Notes under the pieces: generated by a model | What the model was told of the DNA's origin: nothing | Database searches by the model: none | Seen by the model: the letters and a program-made list of their open reading frames with translations, nothing else | Made by a program: the position numbers and the translations under genes | Shown here: piece by piece, positions 24,251-52,228 of the stretch | Numbering within the stretch: position 1 is the first letter of the stretch | Layout: each line of letters starts with the position of its first letter | Source of the DNA: a virus | Taxonomy: Duplodnaviria > Caudoviricetes | Strand: one strand, 5' to 3' | DNA: 64,000 nucleotides | Virus record (IMG/VR): IMGVR_UViG_3300021364_000005

Positions 24251-24515
24251 TCCCGCTTGTATCAAACACCAAGGTTATTTTCTAGAATTAGATGGAACTT
24301 ATCTTCCGTGTTGCTGGTTGTTGACTGACTGGAAAGCAATAGACGAGCTGAAAGAACTTTATGGTGAAGATTGGGATAAACTTAAAATACAAAATAATTC
24401 TCCTGAAGAAATTGAAAAGCTGTGGCAGAAAATTGTAGATACTTGGTATGACAAACCTATAAGTAGGTGTGCAATTATGTGTCCTAAAAAAGGTAGGTTT
24501 GCTGAATATGAATAG
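24234..24515 (+). CDS. Stand-alone SPASM/twitch Fe-S domain protein
   Basis: AGGAG at 24224-28 before the ATG at 24234; PAC...LELDGTYLPCC...RCAIMC. Confidence 0.75.
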   Translation: MSLKIDPACIKHQGYFLELDGTYLPCCWLLTDWKAIDELKELYGEDWDKLKIQNNSPEEIEKLWQKIVDTWYDKPISRCAIMCPKKGRFAEYE

Positions 24516-25773
24516 ACTACCTTGCCACCAACCTTATAACACTATGGTATTTTTTAGTGCAACTAATGATATTAGTTGGTGTTGTAAGATGCAACCTACC
24601 ACTATAGATCCAACAACCGACGATTGGTTTTACAATAACAGGTATTTAAATTCTGTAAGATCAACTTTACAAGCAGGACATTTTCCAGATGCTTGCCACC
24701 GTTGTGCAATAGCCGAAAAAAACAATCAAAAAAGTTGGCGTCATTTAGAAGGCCAAGTTCCTCAGAAATATGCTGACGGATACTCACAAGAGCGCAAATC
24801 AGTGTTTCAGCGTATAGAGTTTTATTTTGATAATACTTGTGATTGTGCTTGTTTGTATTGTGGAGCGGGATTAAGCAGTAAATGGCAGCAAGAATATAAA
24901 AATGTTGACGAGCAAATATTTAAAGAAATTGCACCTTTCTTTAAGGTAGATGAGTTATATAAAACTGAAGAAAAAAATATTATCAAGCTATTGGACTATC
25001 TTGTATATCTAGGTAAAGAATTGCCTAAGCACGAAACAATGGTTGATTTTGCTTTTTTAGGAGGAGAACCTTTTTTAAGTCCACAAATTAAAAATGGAGA
25101 GTTTCAAAAATTTGTAGAAGCTTTTTACACTCATGCTCCTGCTGATTTCCGTATGGTTTTAAGTTTTGTAACAAATTGTAACAATCCTGATAAGGTCTGG
25201 GAACGTAATTGGAAAACTTTAGAAACTTTACGTAACAAGTATAATATAGGTTTAAACATTGCACTTAGTTTAGAAAGTATAGGCAAAGTTACTGAATATG
25301 TTAGATATGGCTCTGATTGGAATACTGTAGATAAAAACATAGACAAATGGCTTAGTAAAGATTGGACACAAGTACATTTTAACAATGCATACAATGCATT
25401 TGCGATTGAAACTTTGCCCGAGTTTGTTGAATACATGGTAAACAAAGGAAAGCAACACAACAGACAAATAGAAGTTAGTCCTAATGTTGTTTATGATCCT
25501 ATTGAACTTAGTCCTATGGTGTTGCCAAAAACATTTGACAAATATTTCGATAAAGCAATAGATCTTGTTTATCAAAACAAACAGCATTTTGTTGACAGTA
25601 ATTATAATGGTTACAGTGCATTGATCAAAACTTTTCAAGAGCTAAAAGACAAATTAGGTACACATACAGATAAAAAAGATAAAATGAACACATTTGTCCA
25701 GTATTCCAAGAAGTACCGCAATTTGGAATTAAATACAGTAGCCCCTAAAGTTGCAAAGTATTTAAATGAATGA
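24508..25773 (+). CDS. N-terminal twitch-domain radical SAM protein
   Basis: N-terminal CHQPY..WCC..CHRC; CDCACLYC; FLGGEP. Confidence 0.85.
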   Translation: MNRLPCHQPYNTMVFFSATNDISWCCKMQPTTIDPTTDDWFYNNRYLNSVRSTLQAGHFPDACHRCAIAEKNNQKSWRHLEGQVPQKYADGYSQERKSVFQRIEFYFDNTCDCACLYCGAGLSSKWQQEYKNVDEQIFKEIAPFFKVDELYKTEEKNIIKLLDYLVYLGKELPKHETMVDFAFLGGEPFLSPQIKNGEFQKFVEAFYTHAPADFRMVLSFVTNCNNPDKVWERNWKTLETLRNKYNIGLNIALSLESIGKVTEYVRYGSDWNTVDKNIDKWLSKDWTQVHFNNAYNAFAIETLPEFVEYMVNKGKQHNRQIEVSPNVVYDPIELSPMVLPKTFDKYFDKAIDLVYQNKQHFVDSNYNGYSALIKTFQELKDKLGTHTDKKDKMNTFVQYSKKYRNLELNTVAPKVAKYLNE

Positions 25774-26839
25774 ATATCTAAAACAACCTCATAAGATACA
25801 GTTTGAACTTAGTAGTATGTGTAATGCATTGTGTCTAGGTTGTGTTCGTACGGATACAAGAAACTTTAATCAGTCAAAGCCACTTATTCCTAAAAAACAA
25901 ATTGTAGAAGTTGATACATTTGTAAAGCTACTTTCAAGCGAAGAAATGTCTACAGTTAAAATACTAGAGTTTTGTGGAACTGTTGATGATCCTCTTATGC
26001 ATCCAGATTTTCTTACTCTACTTGAACGAGCATACGAAATAAATCCAAATTATAAAATAAACATTCATACAAATGCAAGTCTACGAAACGAAAATGATTT
26101 TGTAAAATTAGCACAAATTTTAAAGAAGTTTAAAGAACACGAACTATTGTTTAGTATTGATGGCATTGGAGAAACACATACTATATACAGACAGTTTACA
26201 AATTATGATAAAATAATTTCAAATGCAAAAGCATTTATAAATGAAGGCGGCAGGGCTGTATGGCAATTCTTAATTTTTCCTTGGAATGAACATCAAGTCG
26301 AGGAAGCAAAAGAAATAAGCAAAGAATTAGGATTTGCTGTATTTTTACGAAGACATGATAGATCTATTGCAACTGGGCTAGGTTTAGAAAAAATACAAGG
26401 TAAGAAAAGAAAAAATACTTTGTACGATATAGTTGAAGAACATTCCATGGAGCAACTTTTAGAAAGTTATGAAAATATTAACGAAGTAGAAATTGCTTGT
26501 AATAACCAAGAAAAAGGAATGTATTTTGTAAGTTTTGATAGTAAGTTATGGCCATGTTGTTTTATTCCTAACGGATTTTTACAACAGCAACCTCGCAAAG
26601 TAGAATATTTACAAAAAAGATTATATGATACTTACGGTAAAGATTTTAATGATCTAACAAAAAAGACTGTGAAAGAAATTGTTACCAATGACTTTTACAA
26701 AAATGATCTTGTAGAGAGCTGGGATAACCCTGTAGCTTTAGGAAAATGTGGCAAGATAACAAGATGTGCAGAAACTTGTAATGTTTATAAATTAAAAGCA
26801 TTGCCAATTGGTAAACCAAAGGTGTATAGTAATGTCTAA
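25766..26839 (+). CDS. Radical SAM protein with C-terminal SPASM/twitch-like domain
   Basis: CNALCLGC, GTVDDP, SIDG; C-terminal C...WPCC...CAETC. Confidence 0.9.
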   Translation: MNEYLKQPHKIQFELSSMCNALCLGCVRTDTRNFNQSKPLIPKKQIVEVDTFVKLLSSEEMSTVKILEFCGTVDDPLMHPDFLTLLERAYEINPNYKINIHTNASLRNENDFVKLAQILKKFKEHELLFSIDGIGETHTIYRQFTNYDKIISNAKAFINEGGRAVWQFLIFPWNEHQVEEAKEISKELGFAVFLRRHDRSIATGLGLEKIQGKKRKNTLYDIVEEHSMEQLLESYENINEVEIACNNQEKGMYFVSFDSKLWPCCFIPNGFLQQQPRKVEYLQKRLYDTYGKDFNDLTKKTVKEIVTNDFYKNDLVESWDNPVALGKCGKITRCAETCNVYKLKALPIGKPKVYSNV

Positions 26840-28154
26840 TACTTATTGTCCTATTCCTTGGATATTCCAAGCAGTTAGGAATAACGGAGATATAAGAGTT
26901 TGCTGTCAAGCAAATGTAACAAAGAATCAAGGAGTAGTAAGACACCCAGACGGAACTCCATATAACGCTGGGCGTGATAACATGGAAGAAGCACGTAATG
27001 CAGAGCTTATGAAAGAAATTCGTAAGAATATGATTGCTGGTAAATGGAGTGAAGAATGTGGCAGATGTATGAAAGAAGAAGCTAGTGGACTTAATAGTAG
27101 ACGTCAGTACGAATTAGAAAACTGGGATTATAGTTTTGAACAAGCTGTTTCTTCAACCGAGAAAGACGGCACTATAACAAATCCGCAACTACGTTACTAT
27201 GACTTACGATTTGGAAATATGTGTAATCTTGCTTGTAGAATGTGCGGACCTACTGACAGCCATACATGGTATGAACAATGGTTAGGATATCACGGCGGTG
27301 ACGGATATGACGATACTCACGGATATGTAAAACTACAAAAAAATGAAAAAGGTAGATTGTATACAAATGATTATGACTGGCATAGTAGCGAAACTTTTTG
27401 GGAACAAATAGAAAAAAACATTTCTAACATAGAACACGTTTACATGGCAGGCGGAGAGCCTATGATGATCGAACGTCATTATGAGTTTTTGCAAAAGTGT
27501 ATAGATGGCAATCATGCAAAAAATATTATTATAGAATATAATACCAACATGACAAATTTGCCTGATAGAGTTTTGGATATGTGGACACACTTTAAACAAG
27601 TGAGAGTTGGTGCAAGTATAGATGGTATGGGCGATGTTGTAGAATATCAGCGTTGGCCTTTAAAATGGAAAAGTGCATATCGTAATTTACAAAAATTAGA
27701 CGACTATGCATATAATAATAAAAATATAATTGCTTGGTTAGCGTTTACAGTTACAGCATATAATGTATGGCACGTACCAGAGTTTATGTGGTGGAAACTA
27801 AAAGAAAGTGGATTTAAGGCTATTAACAGCACAAAGAAACGTCCTATAATTACACATCATGTTGCACATGGACCAAAACGTGCAAATATAAAAATATTAG
27901 ATAAAAAAATGAAAGACCATTTAGAATATCATTATGCTAGATGGTCGGATAGATTTATTGATGATAAAGAACTTTCAATGGATGTAAAAAACAATGCTGC
28001 TTCTATTATGGAAAGTGTTTTAAAGTTTGCAAAGAGTGAAGACGCTTCAGATAAACTTCCTGAGTTTGTAAGGTTTACTAAGTACTTGGATAAGCAAAGA
28101 AATCAGTCTGTGGTAGATGTAGTACCACAATACGAGGAATTATTTAATGAGTGA
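26832..28154 (+). CDS. N-terminal twitch-domain radical SAM protein
   Basis: YCPIPW..VCC..CGRC; CNLACRMC; AGGEP. Confidence 0.9.
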   Translation: MSNTYCPIPWIFQAVRNNGDIRVCCQANVTKNQGVVRHPDGTPYNAGRDNMEEARNAELMKEIRKNMIAGKWSEECGRCMKEEASGLNSRRQYELENWDYSFEQAVSSTEKDGTITNPQLRYYDLRFGNMCNLACRMCGPTDSHTWYEQWLGYHGGDGYDDTHGYVKLQKNEKGRLYTNDYDWHSSETFWEQIEKNISNIEHVYMAGGEPMMIERHYEFLQKCIDGNHAKNIIIEYNTNMTNLPDRVLDMWTHFKQVRVGASIDGMGDVVEYQRWPLKWKSAYRNLQKLDDYAYNNKNIIAWLAFTVTAYNVWHVPEFMWWKLKESGFKAINSTKKRPIITHHVAHGPKRANIKILDKKMKDHLEYHYARWSDRFIDDKELSMDVKNNAASIMESVLKFAKSEDASDKLPEFVRFTKYLDKQRNQSVVDVVPQYEELFNE

Positions 28155-29547: not shown

Positions 29548-30367
29548 ATTGGAAAGACTTGAAACAGACCCTGTAATGAAAGTGCAAAATATTGTACCTG
29601 AAGAATACCATAGTGAATGGAAAAAAACTTGGGGAGATAGTTTTTCTGAAGAGAACTTTTTCGATCATGACGAATTAGAATGGCTTACAGATTTAATGTA
29701 CAAACAACATCACGCTAGGCGTGTAAAGAAAAATGGCACATTACATTACTTTGTCAATAATGAATTAATTAAAGAAAAGTTCTACGACAAAATAAAAGCA
29801 GCAGTTCCAGAACTTGACGATACTGAGTGGCACGGTAATTTTTTAATTACTGCTACACCGTACAACTTACACATTGACACAGCAGACGAAAAAGTTTATA
29901 ACGGCACAGTGCCAGGCAAACAAATTATTATACCTTTGTTTACTTGTTGGACTGGTAATAAAGACAAAGACGAGGATTGGTATCCAGAGTGTGGTACTGC
30001 TGTATTTAAAAACAGATTTTTAATGTACGGCACAAACTTTGCAAAAAGTGATAACGAATACGATACAAATGTATTTTATACGCAGCGCCAATATCAAGAC
30101 TTAGTTTGTTACGATAAGCAAGGCGAAAGAATGGATGTAGACTGGAACAAAGAATTTCCAGATGATTTGTACAAAAAGCATTTCGATCATTTTAAAAAGC
30201 GTTGGTTGGATGGATTTGAGTTTGAAGCAGTGCATAATTGGAAACGTGGTAATTTAATTGTATTTGATAGATGTCAAGCACACAGCGGTGTAAACTTTCA
30301 AAAATGCGGAGTTACACTAAAGGCAGGATTGTCCTTGATGACTACTACACGGAATAATAATGTTTAA
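29540..30367 (+). CDS. 2OG-Fe(II) oxygenase-like (double-stranded beta helix) protein
   Basis: LHID...QAHSG HxD...H triad; paralog of 40500. Confidence 0.55.
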   Translation: MDKLERLETDPVMKVQNIVPEEYHSEWKKTWGDSFSEENFFDHDELEWLTDLMYKQHHARRVKKNGTLHYFVNNELIKEKFYDKIKAAVPELDDTEWHGNFLITATPYNLHIDTADEKVYNGTVPGKQIIIPLFTCWTGNKDKDEDWYPECGTAVFKNRFLMYGTNFAKSDNEYDTNVFYTQRQYQDLVCYDKQGERMDVDWNKEFPDDLYKKHFDHFKKRWLDGFEFEAVHNWKRGNLIVFDRCQAHSGVNFQKCGVTLKAGLSLMTTTRNNNV

Positions 30368-32774
30368 ATTAGAAAATATAGAACTTGTACATTTCGAAGT
30401 GACAGGTAAATGTAATGCTAGATGTCCTATGTGTAGTAGACATACTAAAGACGGATTCTTACAGCCACATATGCCTCAGACTCATTTATCTAAAGAAATA
30501 TTCTACAAGTTTTTTACACACGAATTTTGTACTCAACTAAAACACGTTTATCTAAGTGGAGTATACGGTGATCCGTGTATGCATCCCGATCTTGTAGAAT
30601 TTTGTGCCCATTTAGCAAAGTATGATATTGAAGTTGCTATCGACACAAATGGTGGATATCGCAAAGCTGAGTTTTGGTCAGCACTTGCAAAGACGGGTGT
30701 ACAAGTTAATTTTGCTATAGATGGATTAGAGGATACAAATCATTTATATCGTAGAGGTGTGAGATGGGATGTTGTAGATCGAAATATTAGAGCTTACTCA
30801 GAAGCAGGCGGCAATGCACAATGGAACTTTATTGTTTTCGAACATAACGAGCACCAAGTTGACGAAGCAAGACGGTTTGCTGATGAGCTAGGTTTTGATT
30901 TTAGAACTAAAATTACACAAAAGTTTAGTAGCTCCAAAACTTGGGATGTATACGAAGATGGTAAAAAGTTATACGAACTAACACCACCGGAAAATGAAGA
31001 ATATAGACATCCACACATTTCAGAACGTCCGTATGCTGCAACACAAATTTTTGAATTTGATTTAAAATCTCCACGTTGGAATGAACTTGATGATGTTGAA
31101 ATTGACTGTAAAGCATTACAGCGTAAAGAAATATTTTTAAGTTATGAAGGTTATGTATTGCCTTGTTGCTACGTAGGTACGCTTTATAATGATAGCCCTG
31201 GTACATATCAAATTAACCAAAACTTAGATTTGACTAAATTTAAAATTGCTGATTTAGATTTAGAAACTATAGTAAACAACATGAATGTTATTGCTGATAC
31301 ATGGAATACTAAGAAAGTTTGTGACGGAAAATTAATCACCTGTGCAAGAACTTGCAAAAAGAATAATGCACTTAAAACTCAGTTTATTAAACAGCCAAGC
31401 AAGAGCTTTTGTGTTCTGCCATGGATTCATGCACAGACAAAACCCAATGGGCAGATTAAGCCTTGTTGTAGATTTGATCATAGACACAAAGCGTATAAAA
31501 ATGAGGACGGCTCGTATATTTGGGATAGATTTAATATTAACAAAGGAATGACATTTAAAGAAGCAGTTGAATCTCCAGAATGGCAAGAGATAAGAGACGC
31601 TATGATGGAAAACATAGAAGTGCCAGGCTGTCGTAAATGTTATGCAGAACAGTTAAGAAATCTAGAAGATAAAAAACGTGCAAGAAGTATGCGTGTAAAA
31701 GAAAATTGGTTCTGGAATAAAAACAACCAGTTTGAATTAGAACCACCTAATGAATTAGGAAAATTACGATACATAGAACTAGCATTAGGAAATTTTTGCA
31801 ATTTGAAATGTAGAACTTGCACCGCTGATCTAAGTAGCACATGGACAGAAGATGAAAATACACTTAGTGAATTTTATGATGACAGACACAAATATAAACA
31901 CATTGTTCATGTCGATCAAAATTGGAAAGTTGAAGATTTTGAATATGTAGAAGAAATAAAATTTACTGGTGGTGAGCCTATGCTGCATCCAAACTTTATT
32001 AAAGTTATGGATCTAATTATTAGCACTGGTAGAGCTGATCAAGTAAACCTAGATATTTTCACTAATGTTAGTTGGGTACCAAAAGCAAAAGTATTAGATA
32101 GGCTTAACCAATTTAAGGCTGTAAAAATTAATTTAAGTATTGACGGACTAGGTGCTGTCAACGATTATGTTAGATCACCAAGCGATTGGCCTACAGTTGA
32201 AGAATCGGTTATTGAATGGATTAAAGAAGAAGCAAAGTATCCTGATAGATATGCAATTAAATGGGCACCTTGTTTGAGTATCTATAATGTGTGGCAGTTT
32301 ACAGATATGGTAGACTGGTGGATAGATTTACAATTAAAATATAAAGGTAAAGATTTTTGGAATAGTATAACTAGAGATAATATTAGTCCTAGCGAAAGAG
32401 TCAAACAACTTAATATGATTATAAATCTTGTACATGATCCAAAATATCTTTCTCCTACACTTTATCCTGAAAAGGAAATCCTTGTAGACAAAATACAAAA
32501 ACAAAAAGATAAATTTTATAATTTACTTATGACTACGTTTAATGGTGACGACAGAGACAGATGGCTGCTTGGAATGCACTTTGATAGTTTATACGATAAA
32601 GTTATTAGCACTGTCAAACGTCCAGTTAACGAAGATGACTTGAAAACGTTTATAGAATATACAGTAGATTTAGATAAGTTACGAAATCAAGATATTAGAA
32701 CTGCTATTCCTCATGTTTGGGATAAGGTTAATGAATATTATGATTTAGAATATAAAGGAAGAATACCTGCATGA
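30360..32774 (+). CDS. Double radical SAM fusion protein (rSAM-SPASM + twitch-rSAM)
   Basis: CNARCPMC/GVYGDP, then SPASM (C..LPCC..CARTC), then FCVLPW..PCC..CRKC and a second CNLKCRTC/TGGEP. Confidence 0.9.
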   Translation: MFKLENIELVHFEVTGKCNARCPMCSRHTKDGFLQPHMPQTHLSKEIFYKFFTHEFCTQLKHVYLSGVYGDPCMHPDLVEFCAHLAKYDIEVAIDTNGGYRKAEFWSALAKTGVQVNFAIDGLEDTNHLYRRGVRWDVVDRNIRAYSEAGGNAQWNFIVFEHNEHQVDEARRFADELGFDFRTKITQKFSSSKTWDVYEDGKKLYELTPPENEEYRHPHISERPYAATQIFEFDLKSPRWNELDDVEIDCKALQRKEIFLSYEGYVLPCCYVGTLYNDSPGTYQINQNLDLTKFKIADLDLETIVNNMNVIADTWNTKKVCDGKLITCARTCKKNNALKTQFIKQPSKSFCVLPWIHAQTKPNGQIKPCCRFDHRHKAYKNEDGSYIWDRFNINKGMTFKEAVESPEWQEIRDAMMENIEVPGCRKCYAEQLRNLEDKKRARSMRVKENWFWNKNNQFELEPPNELGKLRYIELALGNFCNLKCRTCTADLSSTWTEDENTLSEFYDDRHKYKHIVHVDQNWKVEDFEYVEEIKFTGGEPMLHPNFIKVMDLIISTGRADQVNLDIFTNVSWVPKAKVLDRLNQFKAVKINLSIDGLGAVNDYVRSPSDWPTVEESVIEWIKEEAKYPDRYAIKWAPCLSIYNVWQFTDMVDWWIDLQLKYKGKDFWNSITRDNISPSERVKQLNMIINLVHDPKYLSPTLYPEKEILVDKIQKQKDKFYNLLMTTFNGDDRDRWLLGMHFDSLYDKVISTVKRPVNEDDLKTFIEYTVDLDKLRNQDIRTAIPHVWDKVNEYYDLEYKGRIPA

Positions 32775-36175: not shown

Positions 36176-36201
36176 CGATTTCTCCTAATTTATTATATAC
36201 G

Positions 36202-36220: not shown

Positions 36221-36225
36221 TTGCT

Positions 36226-38674: not shown

Positions 38675-38680
38675 ATAAAT

Positions 38681-41207: not shown

Positions 41208-41665
41208 AAATAAGCGACTTCCAGCTTCGCAGGCCTCACTGGAGAGGACGCAATAAATTGATTGCAGGATTAATGGAGCCTAATAAATCTGTAATTGATT
41301 TAGGATGCGGAGCAAAAAATTTGTTATGGTATTACAGAAATCCTTTGAGATATCTAGGACTAGATGGTATGCCTATCGAAGAAGTTGATATGGTTGTTGA
41401 TTTGGACAGTGACTGGAGAGATACTGTAGAACATAATTGGGACTATTCTGTAAACAGTGGAATATTAGAATGGTGCAACGGCAGACGATTATTAAAGCAT
41501 CAAAAGGGCATTGCAAAAGAATATATATTTACTTGGTGGCCTGCATCAAGACCTCCTGTTAGAGCTTCTTTTGATGCTTTTGAATCCTGGGTCGAAGAAG
41601 ATTACATAATTAATGAAGTGCATGATTGGGGACCACAAAAAGTTTACAAGTGTGTTAGTTTATGA
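41198..41665 (+). CDS. Small class I SAM-dependent methyltransferase
   Basis: VIDLGCG motif I, YLGLD, SGILEW. Confidence 0.7.
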   Translation: MELEISDFQLRRPHWRGRNKLIAGLMEPNKSVIDLGCGAKNLLWYYRNPLRYLGLDGMPIEEVDMVVDLDSDWRDTVEHNWDYSVNSGILEWCNGRRLLKHQKGIAKEYIFTWWPASRPPVRASFDAFESWVEEDYIINEVHDWGPQKVYKCVSL

Positions 41666-44022: not shown

Positions 44023-44025
44023 ATA
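44019..44025 (+). promoter_or_regulatory. Late promoter motif ATAAATA 4 nt before the start codon
   Basis: ATAAATACGTTATG. Confidence 0.5.
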
Positions 44026-44029
44026 CGTT

Positions 44030-44803: not shown

Positions 44804-46370
44804 AGGTGTTAATTGTATTCTGTTCACAGGCAGTAGTAGAACAGATCCGTTCCGCACACAAGAAAAACTAGACAGTGCATATGCTCAAGTAATACGTCCT
44901 TTGGGTGCGTATCAAATTGCAAATTTACTTAGGCAAGAAGGATATACTGTACAAGTTATAGACAGATATCCTTGGATTATTAGGAATTCTGATGATTTGT
45001 TTCCTATTCTTGAAAGGTATCTAGGTGAAGATACATTATGGATAGGGTATAGTAATACCTTTTTTGAGCATAGAATACAACAAAGTAAAATAAAAGATGG
45101 TTATCAAAGTCCTGAAGCAGACAGTATTGTTCTTAGCGACAGGGGAGTTCGCTATCTGAAAAGAAAAGCGTATGAAGCAAATCCTAATATAAAATTTTTA
45201 GTAGGCGGAGCAAAGACTTGGAGATGGAGCCAAGGCGACGAAAGGTTATTTGATTACTATGTTGAAGGCTATGCAGACGAAGCAGTCATACGCTTAACTA
45301 ATTATTTGGCAGGCAAAGGCGAAAAGCCGCCTATGAAAAAGAATGATGATGAACATAGTTATACAATTAACTATGATCAAAAAGGCAGCCTGTTTGATTT
45401 CAACAATAGTCATCACCATTGGCACGAAAGTGATCATTTAATGTGGGGAGAATCTCTTCCTATCGAAATTGCAAGGGGTTGTATTTTTAAATGTGCTTAT
45501 TGTAGTTTTCCATTAAATGGAAAGAAGAAACTAGACTTTATACGTGATCCGCAAAAACTCATAGATGAGCTAACAGAAAATTACGAAAAGTACGGAGTCT
45601 ATCAATACATTTATAGTGACGATACACACAACGATAGTGTAGAAAAGTTAGAGTTGTTATATAACAAAGTTTATAGTAAACTACCTTTTAAAATTGAATT
45701 TAGCACTTACTTAAGATTAGACCTTTTAGCTGCTCATAGCCATACTATAGAATTACTTCACGCAAGCGGATTGAGAGGAACATTTTTTGGAATTGAAAGT
45801 TTCAATCATGAAGCAAATAAAACTGTGGGCAAAGGTGCAAGTGAACAAAAAATCTGGGATAACTTATACAAATGTAAAGAAGTATGGAAAGATGACGTTG
45901 TAATACATAGTGGTTTAATAGTAGGATTGCCAAATGATAGTGCAAAAACTATTACTGCTTGGCTTGAAAAAGCAGTTGCTCCTGATAGTCCTATAGACTT
46001 TAGTATGATAGCAGAATTACAAATATTTCCAAAGTGGGGTAGAGATAGTCACTGGATGAATAAGATAGAGTTAAATCCGGATTTTTACGGTTATAAATTT
46101 GATGATCCTGAAAATGACTGGAATTGGACAAATAATACAGGACTTACAAAAATTCAAGCTATGGACATTGCACAGGTTTATAGACAAAAACAACTTCTTA
46201 ATAAACCTAATATGGGATGGATGACTTATTTACGCTGTGCAAGTGTAGGGCAAACAGTTGAGCAATATAAAAATACAACAATGAAAGAACACGTAGTTAT
46301 ACGAGATAAAGTTTTTCGTGACTACTGTGACAAACTATTAAATGCAGACGTTTCAATTCACAGAAAATAA
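44796..46370 (+). CDS. Cobalamin-binding-domain radical SAM protein
   Basis: N-terminal RPLGAYQIA..L...G..VQVID and VGG; EIARGCIFKCAYC; FFGIESF. Confidence 0.8.
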   Translation: MFKGVNCILFTGSSRTDPFRTQEKLDSAYAQVIRPLGAYQIANLLRQEGYTVQVIDRYPWIIRNSDDLFPILERYLGEDTLWIGYSNTFFEHRIQQSKIKDGYQSPEADSIVLSDRGVRYLKRKAYEANPNIKFLVGGAKTWRWSQGDERLFDYYVEGYADEAVIRLTNYLAGKGEKPPMKKNDDEHSYTINYDQKGSLFDFNNSHHHWHESDHLMWGESLPIEIARGCIFKCAYCSFPLNGKKKLDFIRDPQKLIDELTENYEKYGVYQYIYSDDTHNDSVEKLELLYNKVYSKLPFKIEFSTYLRLDLLAAHSHTIELLHASGLRGTFFGIESFNHEANKTVGKGASEQKIWDNLYKCKEVWKDDVVIHSGLIVGLPNDSAKTITAWLEKAVAPDSPIDFSMIAELQIFPKWGRDSHWMNKIELNPDFYGYKFDDPENDWNWTNNTGLTKIQAMDIAQVYRQKQLLNKPNMGWMTYLRCASVGQTVEQYKNTTMKEHVVIRDKVFRDYCDKLLNADVSIHRK

Positions 46371-47295
46371 TTGGTCAAGTTGGCGATACAACGAAGGAGA
46401 TCTGCATAGTAGAAGTCCTAGTGACGATGCAGTCTTTGAAGTTGTATACAAGCAACAGCAAGTTAAAATAGGTACACTATGGCAAGAAGCAGTAAAAGGT
46501 GCTAAAAGCACTATTGATGCTCATCCTGGAAAAAAGCCTAGTTTATTTTTTAGTGGGGGTGTTGATAGTGAAGTTATGCTTAGAGCATTTATTCATATAG
46601 GTTCTAATCCCGATGTATATATTGTTAGATATAATAATGATATAAATTTGTACGATGTAAGTTATGCTGTGTCAATTTGTAATTCTCTTGGTGTTGACTT
46701 TAAAATTATTGATATTAATTTGTTTAAGTTTTTTGAAAATGATGCAGAACAAATAAGCGAACTTGCACAATGTGATAGACCAAGAATGCTTCCACAGTTA
46801 TCCTTTGCAGATTATGTAGATGGCCTTCCAATCTTATGTATGGCAGATATTACATGGCAGCGCAGCGATTCTGATTATACCAAAAAAGGCATTTGGAAAG
46901 CATGGGAAATAGAAAGCGACTGTGCGTGTGATAGGTATAATATTGCTGTTGGCAGGGAAGCAATTTATCAATGGGGCAGATGGTCACCTGGTATATTACT
47001 AGCGCACACAAGATGGGAATGGTTTCATAAACTTATAAATGACAAGTATTACGGAAAGTTAGGAAATAGCAGCACTAAGTTTGAAGGATTTAGCAGTGAA
47101 TTTCCTGATATGATTCCTAGAAAGAAAAAAGTTGGCTTCGAAAAATGCGAAGATGTTATAAGTGAATTTGAAAGTTTTCTAAAAAAGAAATATAATGGAT
47201 TACCATTTCGTAGGCAAAGTGAATACACATTAGACGAAATGTGGTTTAAAATTACTGGTAAGAACTACGCTGCCAATAACGTTTTGGCTCTGTAG
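46342..47295 (+). CDS. PP-loop (N-type ATP pyrophosphatase) protein
   Basis: LFFSGGVDSE. Confidence 0.7.
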   Translation: MQTFQFTENNWSSWRYNEGDLHSRSPSDDAVFEVVYKQQQVKIGTLWQEAVKGAKSTIDAHPGKKPSLFFSGGVDSEVMLRAFIHIGSNPDVYIVRYNNDINLYDVSYAVSICNSLGVDFKIIDINLFKFFENDAEQISELAQCDRPRMLPQLSFADYVDGLPILCMADITWQRSDSDYTKKGIWKAWEIESDCACDRYNIAVGREAIYQWGRWSPGILLAHTRWEWFHKLINDKYYGKLGNSSTKFEGFSSEFPDMIPRKKKVGFEKCEDVISEFESFLKKKYNGLPFRRQSEYTLDEMWFKITGKNYAANNVLAL

Positions 47296-48154
47296 AGTTT
47301 GTTAAGAAATTTATTGTTTCTTCAATGTTTAAGAATACTTGATTCTCTCTGTACCTGTGTTCCATACCATTAATGATATAATCTATTTTCTCACAACCTT
47401 GATATTTTGGTACATATATTAATTCATCTTTCCAATTCTTTCCGTAAAAGATTGGTTTGATAAACAAGTCCCAATAGTTAATAACACTAATAGGTTCTTC
47501 TTCTAAGTAAGACAGCCCTTTCATTTGGTAATAGTCCCATGCATTACAAAATGCTGTTACTGTGCCGTCTTGTAAAACACTAAGCAATATATGCTCGTCT
47601 TTTTCGAAACCCACTGCTGTACGGTCGTTACACAGCGTCTTGTGTGCCCTTAAACGTGCATACTCTACACTGTTTGCTGTTTCTAGCAGGTAGTGTTTTC
47701 CATTATGTACATAAGGATCTGGACCATTAAATCCTTCTACTAGTGTTGTATTTTTTGGAAGTTTATTTAAGAAAAATGCGTGTAGTATTTGATTAGGTGG
47801 GATTTGCAGATCTTCTGATGTAGCAATTATATCATCCTTCACTTCGTATGGATCTATCTTAATTATTGTTACATCTATATTAAACTTATCTACACAAGCC
47901 TTTACGTTTTCTAGTTCATTGTCATTGTAATTAGGAAGATGTAAAAACGCACAATCTATTTGAATGCCTGCATCTTGAAAAGCTAAAAGGGTTGCTTGAC
48001 TATCCAACCCTCCGCTAAAACTTAAAATTAAATTATTGTAATTATTTTTTATAAAGTTAGCCCGCTCAGTAAACTCCTGTCTAACAGAACCTACTGGGCG
48101 GGTAACTGGGTGCAAATCTATATAGAATTTGCCATCTTCAAAACCGTATGACAT
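47252..48154 (-). CDS. PP-loop (N-type ATP pyrophosphatase) protein
   Basis: LSFSGGLDSQ; convergent paralog of 46342. Confidence 0.7.
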   Translation of the reverse strand: MSYGFEDGKFYIDLHPVTRPVGSVRQEFTERANFIKNNYNNLILSFSGGLDSQATLLAFQDAGIQIDCAFLHLPNYNDNELENVKACVDKFNIDVTIIKIDPYEVKDDIIATSEDLQIPPNQILHAFFLNKLPKNTTLVEGFNGPDPYVHNGKHYLLETANSVEYARLRAHKTLCNDRTAVGFEKDEHILLSVLQDGTVTAFCNAWDYYQMKGLSYLEEEPISVINYWDLFIKPIFYGKNWKDELIYVPKYQGCEKIDYIINGMEHRYRENQVFLNIEETINFLTNSTEPKRYWQRSSYQ

Positions 48155-48669
48155 TATGCAGTTTTGGGTTTTCTACCACGTTTCTTAGGTGCTTCCTTCT
48201 TAGGTGCTTCCTCGGCTAAGCTAGGATCCATTAGCTCTGTAACGGTTCTCATCCAAGGGAAGATATTCCATACACGTTCGTGTGCATAATACAAGAACAT
48301 ATTAATAGCTGTTGAAAGTCCAGCAAAGATTGTTGCTGATCCCCAGCTTCCTGTTACTAAGAAAGGAATAATAAAATTATTAGATGTAATGACTGCACGC
48401 CATGTAATCATTTTTAAAACTGCACGAAATTCTCTTTCGTCAAATGTCTCGTCTTTTTGCTTTCTAAGCAGCGAGAAAAAATTCCAAATTCTTTCATGTA
48501 ACCAGTACAAGAAACTATTAATAATAGTAGCAATACCAGCAATCTTAAGCCCAACTAGTAAACTACCAGTTGCTAAGAAGCCATTTACTACATGAGAGAT
48601 TGTAAGTAATACTCTCCATGAAACCATCTTAGAGATAGTTCTGTATTGTCTTTCATTGAACTTTACCAT
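48154..48669 (-). CDS. Membrane protein with two tandem DUF2061-like modules
   Basis: K(M)(V/I)(S/T)WR...Y(W/Y).HER(I/V)WN occurs twice; AAGGAG SD. Confidence 0.65.
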   Translation of the reverse strand: MVKFNERQYRTISKMVSWRVLLTISHVVNGFLATGSLLVGLKIAGIATIINSFLYWLHERIWNFFSLLRKQKDETFDEREFRAVLKMITWRAVITSNNFIIPFLVTGSWGSATIFAGLSTAINMFLYYAHERVWNIFPWMRTVTELMDPSLAEEAPKKEAPKKRGRKPKTA

Positions 48670-48697
48670 GAGATCTCCTTTTGTATAAAGTACGTAG

Positions 48698-49879
48698 TTA
48701 TTTATTGATGATTAATTTTTCAGGGATTATTTCTGAATTCATACGACCTACTTCAAATTGCTTTCCATGTATTTGTAATCCGTCTGCAAATCCGTGTTCG
48801 TAGGCTATAAAATTGCTTGCATTTTTCTTTACATAATCTAAACCTTCTAACCATATAGCGTGTTCTTTAGTTCCTTGATAGCCATTTATCCACCAATGAT
48901 CAAATTCAGAATACCAGTCTAAAGTTGCTTTATCTGCTTGCCACCAATTGTCATTCCACGTAGAATATATTAGTGGACGTAATTCTCTTTCGTGTATATG
49001 TCTATACACGTCAGCAGTCATATTTTTATGAAACCACCATTTTTGTTTGTTTGGATTAGCCTCTAACCATCGTTTAATTACGAATGCTTGTTTTGCTACA
49101 ATTGGTAATCCTTCAGGACACCAATAAAAATACTCAACTACACTGTTGTCATACTCTTTAATATGATTAGCAACGGTAATTATGTTAGTAGCTCTGTCAG
49201 CAAATCTTACGTAAAATTTACCATTTGAATGTATAAAACATCTAGGCTTTTCAATACCTAAAACAAGTGCAATTTTTTTCTCTTTATCAAAGCGTTTTCT
49301 AACTTCATTGAAATGCAAATAATTAAAACGTGTAACATTTAAAGGGTTAAGCCCTTCTTTTTTACCTTGTATCCAACTAGCATCTTTAGCAGTTAGCCAA
49401 TGTTCAAACAGGTATTCTGTCATATCAGTAACTGTAATTTTTATTTTAGGATATTTTTTATTGATTTCTTTTAATCTTGGTATAGTTTGTAAATCGTGTT
49501 CAGCTGCCGCATTCCTTGGATCTTTATTACTAGGATCTATTACAGTGTATTTTCTACTAGCAGATTCCATCGTATTACAAATTAATTCGTCAACGTGTAG
49601 TCCTTGACGTAAAAAGCTCATCAAAACATTATGGCTGTCAGCACCTCCGCTGTAACTTATCATTATATAATCGTATTCTTCTCTGAGTTGTTTTGCACGT
49701 TTATCATACAGTTGATCTAACGTCTCTTTTGGTTCTATATTCCAAGGAAACATATCCATAGCCAAATTATTAAAATGCCATTTGACTTCTGCATTTTGTG
49801 TTTGTGCATAAAAACAAGCATCTAGTTTGCTTTCAAACTCAATGCTATTAACAGAGTAATACCCTAGTTTTTTATTCAT
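48698..49879 (-). CDS. PP-loop (N-type ATP pyrophosphatase) protein
   Basis: ISYSGGADSHN; close paralog of 52571. Confidence 0.75.
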   Translation of the reverse strand: MNKKLGYYSVNSIEFESKLDACFYAQTQNAEVKWHFNNLAMDMFPWNIEPKETLDQLYDKRAKQLREEYDYIMISYSGGADSHNVLMSFLRQGLHVDELICNTMESASRKYTVIDPSNKDPRNAAAEHDLQTIPRLKEINKKYPKIKITVTDMTEYLFEHWLTAKDASWIQGKKEGLNPLNVTRFNYLHFNEVRKRFDKEKKIALVLGIEKPRCFIHSNGKFYVRFADRATNIITVANHIKEYDNSVVEYFYWCPEGLPIVAKQAFVIKRWLEANPNKQKWWFHKNMTADVYRHIHERELRPLIYSTWNDNWWQADKATLDWYSEFDHWWINGYQGTKEHAIWLEGLDYVKKNASNFIAYEHGFADGLQIHGKQFEVGRMNSEIIPEKLIINK

Positions 49880-49886
49880 CACAAGT

Positions 49887-49917
49887 TATTTACTCAAATA
49901 AAACACGTAGATAAATA
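49887..49917. promoter_or_regulatory. Divergent late promoter motifs
   Basis: TAAATA on the minus strand (49892-87) and ATAAATA on the plus strand (49911-17), the latter 6 nt before the ATG at 49924. Confidence 0.45.
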
Positions 49918-49923
49918 AAACTG

Positions 49924-50868
49924 ATGAGTAAAGTTTTTCCTTCAAAATATCCTATACTTGCTGCACCTATGAATCAAGTATCAGAGGTTAATTTAGCTGT
50001 TGCGTGTTATAACAGCGGAATTTTTCCTAGTATAAGCACATTATGTTTTGTAAATAATAGACAGATAGATTGGGAAGAATTAACTAGGCAACTTAATTTA
50101 TACAAAAGTCAAACACAAAGTAACAATTTATTGCTAAGTGTTCCTGACAAATTATTTTTCAGCGATACATTTCAGTGTTTAAAAGATCAAAAATTATTTT
50201 CTCATTTAGAGATTATTTGCACAGATCTAAGACTTAATGATAACATAACACTTAGTCAACATGATATTAACAATTTTAATAATTTAAACAATAAATTTCA
50301 ATCTTGGAAAAATAACGGCTATAAGTTTATCTATAAAAGTTTGGCTAGATTTGTAATTTATGATATCTATAAAAATTACAAAAATGATTTATTTGATGCA
50401 TTTGTTATTAAAGGTCCTGATGCAGCAGGAATGGTTATAGATAGGAAGAACGGTAATAACTTACTACAGGACTGTAATGAAGTTATTGAAAAATGTTCTG
50501 ATATAAAACTTATTGCATCGGGAGGTATAGGCTCAAAAAAAGATATAGATGATCTTTTACATATAGGAGTTGATAGTGTATCTTTAGGAACTATTTTTGC
50601 ATCTAGTAAGGAAAGTATATTGTCTGAAACAACAAAAACAAAAATGGTTAAGGCTGGCGCAAATAGTTTGAATAGATTTGCAAACTCCAATCAAAATGCA
50701 TTACAGTTTAGTGTTGTCAACAATGACGACTTTAATCATACTAATAGTTTAAAACAAGGAATATCTACTGGCAATCAAGGACATATTTTTGCAGGAAAGG
50801 GTATACAACACATAACGCAGATTCAATCTGTTAATAACATCGTTAAGGATTTAGTAAATGAAACGTAA
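49924..50868 (+). CDS. Nitronate monooxygenase / FabK-like FMN TIM-barrel oxidoreductase
   Basis: PILAAPM, IASGGIG, LGT.F..SKES. Confidence 0.7.
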   Translation: MSKVFPSKYPILAAPMNQVSEVNLAVACYNSGIFPSISTLCFVNNRQIDWEELTRQLNLYKSQTQSNNLLLSVPDKLFFSDTFQCLKDQKLFSHLEIICTDLRLNDNITLSQHDINNFNNLNNKFQSWKNNGYKFIYKSLARFVIYDIYKNYKNDLFDAFVIKGPDAAGMVIDRKNGNNLLQDCNEVIEKCSDIKLIASGGIGSKKDIDDLLHIGVDSVSLGTIFASSKESILSETTKTKMVKAGANSLNRFANSNQNALQFSVVNNDDFNHTNSLKQGISTGNQGHIFAGKGIQHITQIQSVNNIVKDLVNET

Positions 50869-52228
50869 TTTTAGTTTAGATACCTTCTGTCCAGAAGTAT
50901 ATAGTCAAATAGAGATAGATGCAGAAGGTGACTACAAAATATGTTGCCTAGCAAATTTTGATAAAGACTTTGGTATGTGTTTAGATGAAAATGGAGAAGT
51001 AATGAATGTTGCTACCCATTCTATTGAAGAAGCTATCAACAGTGAAACGCATAAGCAGCATAGATTACAACTAGCAAAAAATGAAAGACCGTTGAGGTGC
51101 AGAAGCTGCTATGATAGCGAGGATGCAACAAAAGGGTTGGCAGAATGGGGTAAAAGTGCTAAGAGGGGTAGAAGTAAGCGTCAACGTGTATTATGGCAAA
51201 CTGGTGCAAGTATACCTGAATATGTAAAGTTTGAACAAGCTGAACAAATGACAAATGCTGACGGAAGCACTTCTGCTAAAGTTGTTAATTTAGATCTACG
51301 TTTTGGTAATCTTTGTAACCAAAAATGTATCATGTGTAGTCCCCAGCACAGTAATTTATGGTACGATGATTGGGTTACGCTAGGCTATGGTGATCCTTTA
51401 TATAATAGAGATAAAGGTATCTATAAAAAAGGCGATGCAAAAACATTTAAATTTTACAAAGATGAACACGGAAAAACAAAAATGACAGGCACTGAGCGTT
51501 GGTGGGAAACTGATACTTGGTGGGAATCATTTGATAAGATTGCTCCCGACCTGCGATACATTTATTTTACTGGAGGCGAACCTTTGGTTGTTCCTGCGAT
51601 GCAAGAATGCTTAGATAGATTAATAAATGCGGGATATGCTGAAAACATACAGTTAAGATATGATACTAATTTAAGTGTAATAAACAAAAAAGTTATAGAT
51701 AAATGGAAGCATTTTAAAAAAGTTTGGTTGTGTGTTAGCATAGATGATACTGAAGAAAGATACAACCTTATAAGATTTCCTGGTAATTACGATAGAATAA
51801 AGGCAAATACTTTACAGTTAAAAGAAGCAGGAATACCTATTCATTACATAAGCACTTGTGTAGGTATTGCAAGTCCGTATAGTGTTATACGTATTAGTCA
51901 ACTTGCAAAAGAACTAGAAGTAGATACATATTTTAGATTTCTAGAAGGTCCTAACTGGTTAGATATTAGGAATTATCCTGCTAGTGCAAAACAAGAAATA
52001 ATAGAAAATTTACAAAAGCATAGCGGCGATCCACTTTATGACAAGTGGGCAAAAGGTGAAATAAAACTTTTACAAAAGTATATGGATCATAGTGAAGAAA
52101 AGTACCTAAAAGAATTCATTAGAGTAATGGATATACTCGATGAGAATCGGGGAACTAATTGGAGGTCTGTGTTAACAGATGTAGTAGATTTGTTTAAAAA
52201 TCATTGTCCTCATATATACAAAGATTAA
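50858..52228 (+). CDS. N-terminal twitch-domain radical SAM protein
   Basis: FCPEVY..ICC..CRSC; CNQKCIMC; TGGEP. Confidence 0.9.
   Translation: MKRNFSLDTFCPEVYSQIEIDAEGDYKICCLANFDKDFGMCLDENGEVMNVATHSIEEAINSETHKQHRLQLAKNERPLRCRSCYDSEDATKGLAEWGKSAKRGRSKRQRVLWQTGASIPEYVKFEQAEQMTNADGSTSAKVVNLDLRFGNLCNQKCIMCSPQHSNLWYDDWVTLGYGDPLYNRDKGIYKKGDAKTFKFYKDEHGKTKMTGTERWWETDTWWESFDKIAPDLRYIYFTGGEPLVVPAMQECLDRLINAGYAENIQLRYDTNLSVINKKVIDKWKHFKKVWLCVSIDDTEERYNLIRFPGNYDRIKANTLQLKEAGIPIHYISTCVGIASPYSVIRISQLAKELEVDTYFRFLEGPNWLDIRNYPASAKQEIIENLQKHSGDPLYDKWAKGEIKLLQKYMDHSEEKYLKEFIRVMDILDENRGTNWRSVLTDVVDLFKNHCPHIYKD

Follow-up and report, generated by a model that had tools for sequence, protein, structure and literature searches.

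The radical SAM island of about 30 kb in an uncultured marine jumbo phage encodes eight enzymes or enzyme domains in which a twitch-like domain precedes the catalytic core. The enzymes are members of a catalogued but unstudied family, and the multi-copy phage arrays, with their split and fused forms, are not deducible from the family name. Sequence comparison indicates that the phage and predatory Bdellovibrio-like bacteria have a gene island in common. The best reading of the island, with the function taken from gene neighbourhood and with somewhat better than even confidence, is an oxygen-independent pathway for tailoring a sugar or glycan.

The radical SAM array and its domain order

All eight copies recognised in the preliminary description matched the family model NF033640 (N_Twi_rSAM; 398 positions, curated cut-off 170 bits) nearly end to end, as intact genes or domains at the positions given there, and all eight ORFs translate stop-free. 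A six-frame HMM scan of the window, the whole 64,000-nucleotide stretch of DNA that was analysed, gave no ninth full-length member. The genes are designated by their start positions.

24508..25773, + strand: N-twitch paralog 1, 421 aa; four-Cys N-domain, CxxxCxxC and GGE all present
26832..28154, + strand: N-twitch paralog 2, 440 aa; bacterial-chromosome relatives at 36-48% identity
28147..29547, + strand: N-twitch paralog 3, 466 aa; most conserved member of the island
31398..32774, + strand: N-twitch paralog 4, aa 347-804, the C-half of the 804-aa fusion 30360-32774
32771..34006, + strand: N-twitch paralog 5, 411 aa; aa 5-67 matched Pfam SPASM (E 1.4e-10)
36226..37395, + strand: N-twitch paralog 6, 389 aa; divergent, invariant Cys all present
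41662..42687, + strand: N-twitch paralog 7, 341 aa; shortest and most divergent; aa 4-69 matched Pfam SPASM (E 2e-6)
50858..52228, + strand: N-twitch paralog 8, 456 aa; NF033640 match

The bit scores were 174 (24508), 382 (26832), 423 (28147), 330 (30360 C-half, aa 347-787), 327 (32771), 165.8 (36226), 160.1 (41662) and 293 (50858), with E-values of 1e-47 to 1e-127 that exclude a chance match. The cut-off was passed by six of the eight; 36226 and 41662 fell marginally under it, yet aligned to almost the whole model and kept every key residue. Pfam Radical_SAM (PF04055) was above threshold in seven copies, and 24508 was picked up via NF033640 alone. The Pfam SPASM domain was found at the N-terminus of five (E 1.4e-10 to 4.6e-4), and an HMM of the N-twitch domain matched 8/8 (E 4e-18 to 1.5e-37). 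For three genes, the ORF list holds alternative upstream GTG/TTG starts, at 24469, 26808 and 36211.

SPASM and twitch domains have been described as C-terminal extensions (PMC9012708). Here the auxiliary domain was N-terminal in 8/8 copies, so the enzymes are twitch-like but permuted, and the inverted order reported earlier is real. The C-terminal order was retained by three relatives within the same island. An alignment of the eight gave four invariant N-terminal cysteines (C-x17/18-C ... C-x2-C), followed by CxxxCxxC and GGE, and in a second alignment of 112 diverse family members these elements were invariant or nearly so. The cysteine pattern first proposed thus stands at the four positions, but the second Cys of its 'CC' is not conserved (CW in 32771, CP in 41662). 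The invariance of the four cysteines, together with homology, suggests that they bind a second Fe-S cluster. The AlphaFold2 model of 32771 (pLDDT 94.4, pTM 0.92) was a confident single body with the N-domain packed on the core, and its first two cysteines were separated by a hairpin (residues 11-21). Profile-profile comparison of the N-twitch with the C-terminal twitch of the co-located paralogs gave a weak match (probability 57.5%, E 1e-4) with the CC in register.

The archetypal twitch radical SAM enzyme is BtrN, the butirosin 2-deoxy-scyllo-inosamine dehydrogenase. Its auxiliary cluster has four Cys ligands and an aminocyclitol is oxidised (PMC9012708). The phage enzymes are predicted to resemble BtrN in having one auxiliary [4Fe-4S] site, ligated by four Cys in a C...C...CxxC layout, and BtrN acts on a carbohydrate-like substrate by a two-electron oxidation without O2 (PMC9012708). 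The difference is that the BtrN twitch is C-terminal, whereas that of the phage enzymes is N-terminal. BtrN was not prominent in the sequence or fold searches.

Companion genes of the island

The island has 14 radical SAM cores in total: the eight N-twitch copies, three C-twitch relatives, one split pair and two others.

22398..23522, + strand: C-twitch radical SAM relative; core, then twitch (C-x18-CC ... C-x3-C); core-module member
23519..24250, + strand: core-only radical SAM, 243 aa, without auxiliary domain; Pfam Radical_SAM; first half of a split enzyme
24234..24515, + strand: stand-alone twitch gene, 93 aa (C-x16-CC ... C-x3-C), C-twitch HMM E 7e-9; second half of the split enzyme
25766..26839, + strand: C-twitch radical SAM relative by its Cys pattern, 357 aa; NF033640 core 66 bits, C-twitch HMM E 7e-43
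30360..31397, + strand: N-half of the 804-aa fusion; canonical radical SAM core with its own C-terminal twitch
38681..39811, + strand: radical SAM with C-terminal Cys, 376 aa; Pfam Radical_SAM 6e-16; core module
44796..46370, + strand: B12-binding radical SAM, 524 aa; Pfam Radical_SAM and weak B12-binding; accessory

The best NCBIfam match of 22398 was the NF033640 core (C-twitch HMM E 5e-41), and the gene was found at ~70% identity in 71 loci and at 44-46% in bacterial chromosomes. In the N-half of 30360, Pfam Radical_SAM covered aa 13-173, followed by Cys 250, 269/270 and 328/332 (C-twitch HMM E 1e-32); the two halves of this fusion are adjacent separate genes in locus L081. Orthologs of 23519 in L069, L021, L020 and L019 were likewise short (239-241 aa), and counterparts of the stand-alone twitch gene were kept in four loci, as a separate 96-aa ORF directly 3' of the core-only gene. 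Prediction of a complex between 23519 and 24234 scored 0.85, against 0.00 for the best control. The 38681 protein had a median identity of 87% in 33 loci and 58-65% to chromosomal copies. The 44796 product, with low-scoring PhpK-like and lipid-B12-rSAM-like matches, is by its sequence a probable methyltransferase and was found in 4/80 loci.

The genes and signals that accompany or bracket the radical SAM genes were as follows.

10512..15860, + strand: bracket on the upstream side, three tail-fibre-like paralogs with Pfam matches to phage tail Collar and Peptidase_G2
16874..16902, + strand: sigma-70 consensus (TTGACA-17-TATAAT), 12/12, by pattern match alone
19269..20885, + strand: tandem double GT-A-fold protein with DxD, 538 aa; internal repeat; core module
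20842..21873, + strand: conserved protein of no family, 343 aa; homologs in 72/80 loci; core module
33960..36175, - strand: divergent pair, an Asp/Arg beta-hydroxylase-type oxygenase (35441-36175) and a conserved 494-aa protein (33960-35444)
38071..38643, + strand: small SDR-like protein, 190 aa; weak SDR matches; core module
38647..38681, + strand: extended -10 sigma-70 consensus, 12/12 with TG; candidate promoter ending at the ATG of 38681
42606..50868, mixed strands: accessory tailoring region by Pfam/NCBIfam matches, mostly absent from relatives (0-7/80 loci); GNAT 42606, FA_desaturase-like 43252 and 44030, PP-loop ATPases 46342 (+) and 47252 (-), DUF2061 membrane protein 48154 (-), 394-aa protein 48698 (-), NMO/FabK-like FMN barrel 49924
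53721..55310, - strand: downstream bracket, fibre/receptor-binding protein; Pfam Mtd_N 1.3e-11

The candidate promoter at 16874 occupies the gap in front of the run of + strand genes to which the island belongs, and TATAAATA overlaps the candidate promoter at 38647..38681. The three upstream fibre-like genes have 33-39% mutual identity. The oxygenase matched Pfam Asp_Arg_Hydrox at 1.4e-10, and the 33960..36175 pair adjoins radical SAM genes in L081 and L084 too. The 20842 protein had no Pfam, NCBIfam or PHROG family match, and 38071 was found in 38 loci at ~58% identity.

The 19269 product is, from its model (pLDDT 90.5, with D63/D65 invariant), a probable glycosyltransferase. Among the loci retrieved, 80 from phages plus the bacterial ones, 84 ORFs contained its domain. 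The GT-A fold matches were modest (E 1e-5 to 1e-3) and included nucleotidyltransferases; apart from a few nucleotidyltransferases, the top Foldseek matches (E 2.6e-5 to 3.3e-3) were GT-A glycosyltransferases, and the best were the peptide S-glycosyltransferases SunS and ThuS. The fold matches also included A64R of PBCV-1, like the 19269 product a virus-encoded GT-A enzyme, with similarity at the level of the fold only (11-13% identity). PBCV-1 (Chlorovirus) is a eukaryotic virus without radical SAM tailoring; the glycosylation of its capsid is a precedent for a virus-built glycan on the virus's own virion protein.

Distribution in phages and bacterial chromosomes

The eight copies are mutually 17-25% identical and fall into eight deep clades, most of them closer to other phage contigs or bacteria than to one another, so they are not recent duplicates. 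The most conserved, 28147, was 82-89% identical (median 84%) in the 80 IMG/VR loci kept. Related phage contigs carry 5-9 family copies each, and gene content shows cassette-like variation among otherwise close phages. One ortholog alone was present in 337 IMG/VR contigs; uncultured aquatic phages carry the family very often, in line with the preliminary description, which places it mainly in uncultured aquatic sequences.

The suggestion that the family is largely phage-borne holds for the metagenomic clusters, the nearest large Atlas clusters being labelled 94-100% viral, but 110/401 sampled genomes of one bacterial phylum (putatively Bdellovibrionota) carry it above the cut-off, often in multiple copies and on Mb-size contigs. 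Housekeeping genes were also present at the eight bacterial loci that were inspected. The family cannot be called essentially phage-borne.

A core module is common to the phage and the chromosomal loci of three bacterial genomes, with identities of up to 59-65%. The 28147 protein was 59-61% identical to the chromosomal copies in L093, L095 and L098, and the 19269 domain 39-43% identical to those of L093 and L098. Homologs of 20842 were found in L095 and L098 (27-37%), and of 38071 in L098 (38%) and L093 (23%, with a weak adh_short match). The bacterial context was sampled at eight loci in six genomes of a single phylum, and all eight had glycosyltransferase and nucleotide-sugar gene surroundings. 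At one, the neighbours were four GT2, a PMT_2 GT-C and an FAD oxidoreductase; across another 96 neighbours, the families found most often were GT2 (8), NDP-sugar epimerase/4,6-dehydratase (3) and DegT sugar aminotransferase (3), followed by UDP-glucose dehydrogenase (2), RmlD (2) and nucleotidyltransferase (2). Other contexts were GT2 and Asn synthase in L084 and, in KVP40, a QueC-like gene close to two of the radical SAM genes, with a PF00534 glycosyltransferase gene close to another one.

The catalogue name of NF033640, 'twitch domain-containing radical SAM protein', carries no function, so the family is, as first described, without an assigned one, and full-text literature searches for an N-terminal twitch/SPASM or NF033640 found no paper. 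Radical SAM gene clusters have been reported in the Campylobacter phages CP220 and CPt10 (PMC2853527), and pelagimyophage host-recognition clusters are reported to combine glycosyltransferases with radical SAM cassettes beside tail fibres (PMC7029224). The carriers are again large T4-like phages whose many radical SAM genes sit in modules that can be exchanged, and the genes were mentioned without family assignment, permuted architecture or function (PMC2853527, PMC7029224). A tblastn search with three of the paralogs gave no match in the Campylobacter phages or HTVC008M.

Candidate substrates and the proposed pathway

The core of the 32771 model superposes on radical SAM enzymes of the twitch/SPASM type and on ones that act on sugars or nucleotides, namely SkfB, BlsE, anSME, MoaA, viperin and DesII (Z 11.8-13.5), and sugar-acting and peptide-acting relatives were tied in the fold search (Z ~12-13.5). 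By both sequence and structure the core matched SkfB (E 9e-12, Z 13.5), anSME and CteB best, and the hairpin-plus-Cys motif of the phage N-domain resembles their C-terminal domain. In those enzymes the auxiliary domain is C-terminal, the substrates are peptides and several have recognition domains, whereas the phage enzymes lie in a glycan-gene context with no precursor seen.

These relatives raise the possibility that the enzymes modify residues, cross-linking, epimerising or oxidising a tail-fibre or other virion protein or a ribosomal peptide, with the GT-A protein glycosylating the same target. The inclusion of peptide maturases (SkfB, CteB, SuiB, anSME) among the nearest solved relatives by sequence and fold, the Asp/Arg beta-hydroxylase-type oxygenase, the SunS and ThuS matches and the flanking fibre genes are all in its favour; the usual targets of an Asp/Arg hydroxylase are proteins or lipid A, which counts against the sugar reading. 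We nevertheless consider residue modification unlikely, since 1) the Pfam and NCBIfam output gave no RRE/PqqD-type domain in any of the eight, whose N-terminus is occupied by the twitch, 2) an unsystematic look at the ORF maps of this densely packed island showed no conserved short precursor ORF, and 3) the genes around the bacterial modules are nucleotide-sugar and polysaccharide genes rather than genes of peptides, proteases or exporters. The RRE is missing from some RiPP radical SAM enzymes, so its absence lowers the peptide reading and does nothing more.

The accessory region bears on a second alternative, quite improbable in our view, in which the island makes or remodels a lipid or other small metabolite, the substrates of its radical SAM enzymes being acyl or isoprenoid chains. 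The window has two FA_desaturase-family genes, the NMO/FabK-like FMN protein, the DUF2061 membrane protein and the B12 radical SAM with its weak similarity to lipid-biosynthesis types; the lipid-acting radical SAM GDGT-MAS was among the fold matches, and a PagP-annotated gene lies near a radical SAM block in Vibrio phage K566. The lipid-like genes, however, occur in 0-7/80 related loci and outside the module that the phage and the bacteria have in common, and so look like an add-on, while the conserved partners are the GT-A protein and, in bacteria, sugar genes. The FA_desaturase-like, FabK/NMO-like and lipid-type B12 radical SAM genes of the window would fit a lipid equally well.

Hypermodification of phage DNA bases or nucleotides seems very improbable. 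The PP-loop, QueC-like proteins of the island (46342, 47252) have counterparts beside the family's genes in KVP40 and L098; nucleotide-acting viperin- and MoaA-type enzymes are among the relatives. Against this, the island stands apart both physically and in its transcription, within the fibre region; the bacterial modules are located in glycan loci, and the QueC similarity is under family thresholds.

The preferred reading, a pathway that tailors a sugar or glycan, has against it that the phage island contains no clear gene for nucleotide-sugar synthesis. The earlier proposal of iterative action on one substrate such as a sugar gains from the bacterial glycan genes and the GT-A protein as far as the sugar is concerned, but iteration has no support; the ancient paralog lineages and the cassette-like variable island could equally serve several branches or products.

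We infer cluster binding, type of chemistry, sugar substrate and acceptor as follows. The CxxxCxxC cluster would split SAM to a 5'-deoxyadenosyl radical that takes one specific hydrogen from the substrate. The N-terminal domain would carry a second [4Fe-4S] cluster, fully ligated by four Cys as in BtrN, which would take up the substrate radical's electron. Typically the result would be an O2-independent two-electron oxidation or a related reaction (epimerisation, dehydration or deamination), and the substrates would most likely be sugars, as nucleotide-sugars or a growing glycan. An unusual sugar may be made and transferred by the core genes (28147, 26832, 22398, 38681, 19269, 20842 and 38071), with either a fibre protein of the virion or the envelope of the host as the possible acceptor. 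The cassette-like paralogs, together with the accessory 2OG hydroxylase, GNAT, PP-loop enzymes and B12 radical SAM, would then diversify the product between phage strains.

Family membership and architecture

Eight copies of a radical SAM family with an N-terminal twitch domain had been described in one locus of the window (24508, 26832, 28147, the C-terminal half of 30360, 32771, 36226, 41662 and 50858, genes being named by start coordinate). All eight reading frames were found to be intact and each matched NF033640 (N_Twi_rSAM), the NCBIfam family in which the twitch domain precedes the CxxxCxxC core, over essentially the whole model. The scores ranged from 160 to 423 bits; six of the eight exceeded the curated cut-off of 170 bits, and 36226 and 41662 fell slightly under it. 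A six-frame scan of the window with the family HMM returned precisely these copies and no further one.

The inverted architecture was borne out by the alignment, in which four invariant N-terminal cysteines preceded the CxxxCxxC motif in every copy. The elements invariant in all eight, C-x17/18-C ... C-x2-C, CxxxCxxC, GGE and three arginines, were also invariant or near-invariant across 112 diverse family members. The Pfam SPASM domain matched the N-terminus of five of the eight. SPASM has seven cysteines and two clusters, unlike the four-cysteine N-domain, which resembles instead the twitch-type auxiliary site of BtrN (PMC9012708). Judged from the sequences, the four cysteines fit a single fully ligated [4Fe-4S] cluster, as in the BtrN twitch. 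The AlphaFold2 model of 32771 was confident throughout (pLDDT 94.4, pTM 0.92), with a beta-hairpin between the first two cysteines, followed by helices and then by the radical SAM barrel. To our knowledge, no characterised radical SAM enzyme has an auxiliary cluster domain before the core.

The preliminary description was also right that the family has no assigned function, NF033640 being catalogued as 'twitch domain-containing radical SAM protein' and unstudied; a search of the literature for an N-terminal twitch or SPASM domain found no paper. Radical SAM arrays in large phages are already in print, mentioned without analysis. What goes beyond a plain instance here is the presence of eight copies, the fused, split and permuted forms side by side, and a conserved stand-alone twitch gene.

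Domain orders among the radical SAM genes

Between 22398 and 52228 (30 kb) lay 14 radical SAM cores; those other than the N-twitch paralogs were as follows.

Other radical SAM cores and the separate twitch gene.
22398, 25766 and the N-terminal half of 30360: C-terminal-twitch radical SAMs, with C-x18-CC ... C-x3-C after the core
23519: core-only radical SAM, 243 aa, auxiliary domain absent
24234-24515: stand-alone twitch ORF, 93 aa, which overlaps and follows core-only 23519 (split unit 23519-24515)
38681 and 44796: remaining cores, the latter B12-type

Despite their C-terminal twitch, 22398 and 25766 had the NF033640 core as their best NCBIfam match, and it ranked second for 23519, a close relative of the N-terminal half of 30360. 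Profile-profile comparison of the N- and C-terminal twitch domains gave a weak match that was in register (probability 57.5%, E 1e-4).

Four further phage loci also have the split pair, 23519 and 24234, as separate genes (41-53% identity). The predicted complex of the two proteins scored 0.85, against 0.00 for the best control, a score that concerns predicted binding only and may mirror likeness to the fused twitch enzymes that have been solved. Among solved complexes, 58 of 80 attained that mark, as did 2 of 110 mismatched pairs. At least 84% of contacts recurred between runs, with a partner pLDDT of at least 87, and the hairpin of the 24234 twitch paired with the first strand of the 23519 core. 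The modelling supports a predicted association of the core-only protein with the separate twitch.

Gene 30360 is a fusion whose two parts are separate genes in L081, a MAG contig, and at least 36 of the best 150 family representatives exceeded 700 aa in length, the majority of them having two matched stretches. The fusion in 30360, the split pair and the many long proteins together indicate that fission and fusion inside the tandem arrays are common in this family. We infer that such events would offer an easy way for the permuted order to arise: inside an array, a freed twitch, comparable to the 93-aa gene, would have been fused onto the next core downstream. The occurrence of fused, split and permuted forms together in one locus provides a rare natural series on domain-order change.

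Carriers, age and surroundings of the copies

A profile of the eight recovered 8,036 clusters (50% identity) at E <=1e-30 among 1.84 billion representatives, and 337 IMG/VR contigs bore one ortholog. The cultured carriers were KVP40-like Vibrio phages, Vibrio phages K566/K567 and Ralstonia phage RsoM2USA; K566 has four full-length members, and the N-terminal motif was present in at least one KVP40 member. Nearly all matches in a profile search of the protein database were orthologs of 32771, and family clusters were labelled '[bacterium]', with one partial 'Gammaproteobacteria MAG'.

The proposal that the family is largely phage-borne stood only in part. The nearest large Atlas clusters were 94-100% viral by label, also when a bacterial chromosomal copy served as the query, but the family occurred above the cut-off in 110 of 401 genomes sampled from a single bacterial phylum (Bdellovibrionota-labelled), that of a MAG titled Bdellovibrionales which, among the genomes of the collection, gave the best match to 32771; the name of the phylum is taken from the title of that one record. 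The 14 well-known control genomes all stayed below the cut-off. Many carrier genomes were multi-copy, with sites deep within contigs of 0.9 to 3.8 Mb, and one genome of that phylum had 11 copies. For six genomes, mis-binned phage contigs were rejected as the source of the bacterial copies, the hits being on contigs of 0.9-3.8 Mb and the sampled loci also bearing housekeeping genes; for the MAG contigs L081 and L084 such an origin is possible.

Pairwise identity within the eight was 17-25% in the alignment. The phylogeny that had been suggested included 119 representative domains taken from related loci, and each of the eight fell in a different deep clade; seven of the clades contained other phage or bacterial sequences as well, and 41662 stood alone on a long branch. 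Given these identities and clades, recent tandem duplication is excluded as the source of the copies. Among 80 related phage loci, 28147 was present in all (about 84% identity), 38681 and 22398 were 87% and 70% identical where present, and most of the remaining paralogs had distant counterparts or none. This sharply uneven conservation indicates that the island consists of a conserved core and exchangeable cassettes. Related contigs carried five to nine full-length family members each.

Comparable arrangements have been reported in pelagimyophages, where a hypervariable host-recognition cluster contains fibres, glycosyltransferases and 'radical SAM cassettes' (PMC7029224), and in Campylobacter phages CP220/CPt10, with 11-12 radical SAM genes within exchangeable modules (PMC2853527). 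Three fibre-like paralogs carrying tail Collar and Peptidase_G2 domains lay upstream of the island; on its downstream side were an Mtd_N fibre protein, a DUF2201 metallopeptidase-VWA protein, a MoxR-type ATPase and a 5'-3' exonuclease. The window, a portion of an uncultured phage, has a G+C content of about 33%. Megablast of 30 kb of it against 50,697 phage records gave zero matches, so that no cultured phage was found at the DNA level, and its IMG/VR relatives are up to 383 kb long (CheckV completeness 100%). Searches of Pfam, NCBIfam and PHROGs left ten conserved unknowns in the island without a family.

Further features of the window.
3-9878: giant ORF, at least 3,291 aa, running off the window start and preceding the fibre genes
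16909-17241: ORF of 110 aa, in which 103 aa align at 28% identity with a portion of a 494-aa unknown
33960-35444 (-): the 494-aa unknown, paired with the Asp/Arg hydroxylase, a pairing that recurs in L081 and L084
43252-50868: lipid-like sub-module with two FA_desaturase paralogs (37% identity), a B12 radical SAM, two PP-loop ATPases, a DUF2061 membrane protein and an NMO/FabK-like enzyme
48698-49882 (-) and 52571-53773 (+): unknowns of about 400 aa, 49% identical to each other, on either side of the last N-twitch gene
56859-59348 (-): the DUF2201 protein paired with the MoxR-type AAA ATPase

Only about 100 aa in the C-terminal part of the giant ORF were weakly like PA5oct-type virion structural proteins; with this weak likeness only, it was not equated with VrlC, which bounds the pelagimyophage host-recognition cluster. 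The DUF2201 protein had homologs of about 42% identity in PA5oct-like phages, Atu_ph07 and other jumbo phages (799 phage records). The proteins 48698 and 52571 had a short stretch in common with the PP-loop protein 47252 and matched no Pfam, NCBIfam or PHROGs family. The sub-module at 43252-50868 was missing from nearly all of the 80 related loci and looks like a strain-specific insertion.

Pattern matching identified two perfect sigma-70 consensus promoters, ahead of the island and of 38681, which would fit with early expression and with a role directed at the host. The T4-late-type motif TATAAATA was strongly depleted (3 sites against 11.5 expected in 64 kb), and two of its three sites were within or at the edge of the island.

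Promoter-type motifs from pattern matches.
15856: TATAAATA site, directly upstream of a gene start
36202 (-): TATAAATA site, directly upstream of a gene start
38674: TATAAATA site, directly upstream of a gene start
38647-38683: perfect extended -10 sigma-70 promoter, TTGACA-16-TGnTATAAT, ending 7 nt before the 38681 ATG

The rarity of TATAAATA and its placement at gene starts are what would be expected if it were a functional late-promoter motif avoided elsewhere. The bases of the promoter at 38647-38683 also include the T4-late-type motif, and with both types in the window these pattern matches do not separate the timing of expression. No Shine-Dalgarno sequence was visible before 38681, whose mRNA may be leaderless.

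Gene context and candidate substrates

The phage core module was found in chromosomal loci of three bacteria (L093, L095 and L098; contigs of 0.9-2.9 Mb).

Identity of the core module genes to the bacterial copies.
28147, N-twitch radical SAM: 59-61%
38681, radical SAM: 58-65%
22398, C-terminal-twitch radical SAM: 44-46%
26832, N-twitch radical SAM: 36-48%
19269 domain, GT-A/DxD: 39-43%
20842, unknown: 27-37%
38071, SDR-like: 23-38%

At up to 65% identity, sequence comparison implies gene transfer between Bdellovibrionota-labelled bacteria and abundant marine jumbo phages. In one genome the module was surrounded by four GT2 genes, an FAD oxidoreductase and a membrane glycosyltransferase of the PMT_2 type. 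Eight bacterial loci provided 96 more neighbours, whose top Pfam families were GT2, NDP-sugar epimerase/4,6-dehydratase, DegT-type sugar aminotransferase, UDP-glucose dehydrogenase, RmlD and nucleotidyltransferase, and no phage hallmark family was among the 25 commonest. EF-Tu, Dus and similar housekeeping genes adjoined the sugar genes in these loci. In the phage, 19269 has two tandem domains of about 230 aa each, with an invariant DxD; the top fold matches of its model (pLDDT 90.5) were almost all GT-A glycosyltransferases, including SunS/ThuS, cellulose and hyaluronan synthases, PBCV-1 A64R, ppGalNAc-transferases, TarS and RmlT.

Fold searches with the N-twitch model did not tell substrate classes apart, and it is because of the gene context that sugars are considered the most likely substrates. 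In the proposed pathway, 1) each enzyme would use the CxxxCxxC cluster and SAM to abstract a defined hydrogen atom from the substrate, 2) the four-cysteine N-terminal cluster would accept or relay the electron, as has been suggested for BtrN, 3) the GT-A protein 19269 would pass the product to an acceptor, and 4) the conserved core would build a basic unusual sugar, from which the variable paralogs, together with accessory enzymes, would generate diversity. Taken as a whole, sugar tailoring by radical SAM chemistry and GT-A transfer, with a core and diversifiers, is on balance probable.

Modification of protein or peptide residues would accord with the peptide-maturase relatives of these enzymes and with the hydroxylase in the island, but no recognition domains or precursors were seen and the bacterial context is one of sugar genes, which makes this alternative unlikely. 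That the product is a lipid or other metabolite is suggested by the desaturase-, FabK- and lipid-B12-like genes in the window; such genes are missing in nearly all relatives, and we consider the proposal quite improbable. The QueC-like PP-loop genes could point to hypermodification of DNA or nucleotides, for which we see very little likelihood.

Returning to sugar tailoring, a wider and distinctly tentative extension is that abundant ocean phages and Bdellovibrio-like bacteria practise an undescribed, radical-based and O2-independent editing of glycans, in which each paralog would act at a different C-H position of a sugar, exchange of cassettes would yield strain-specific glycans of fibres or host envelopes in a recognition arms race, and the permuted domain order would have been born in the arrays.

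NF033640-type genes are among the most repeated gene types of abundant marine jumbo phages. The occurrence of the family in cultured Vibrio phages (KVP40 relatives, K566) makes the question of its function directly testable by genetics and anaerobic biochemistry. If the substrates are indeed sugars, these phages would own a large, diversifying toolkit for O2-independent carbohydrate chemistry, with consequences for superinfection exclusion and the recognition of hosts as well as for new enzyme reactions.
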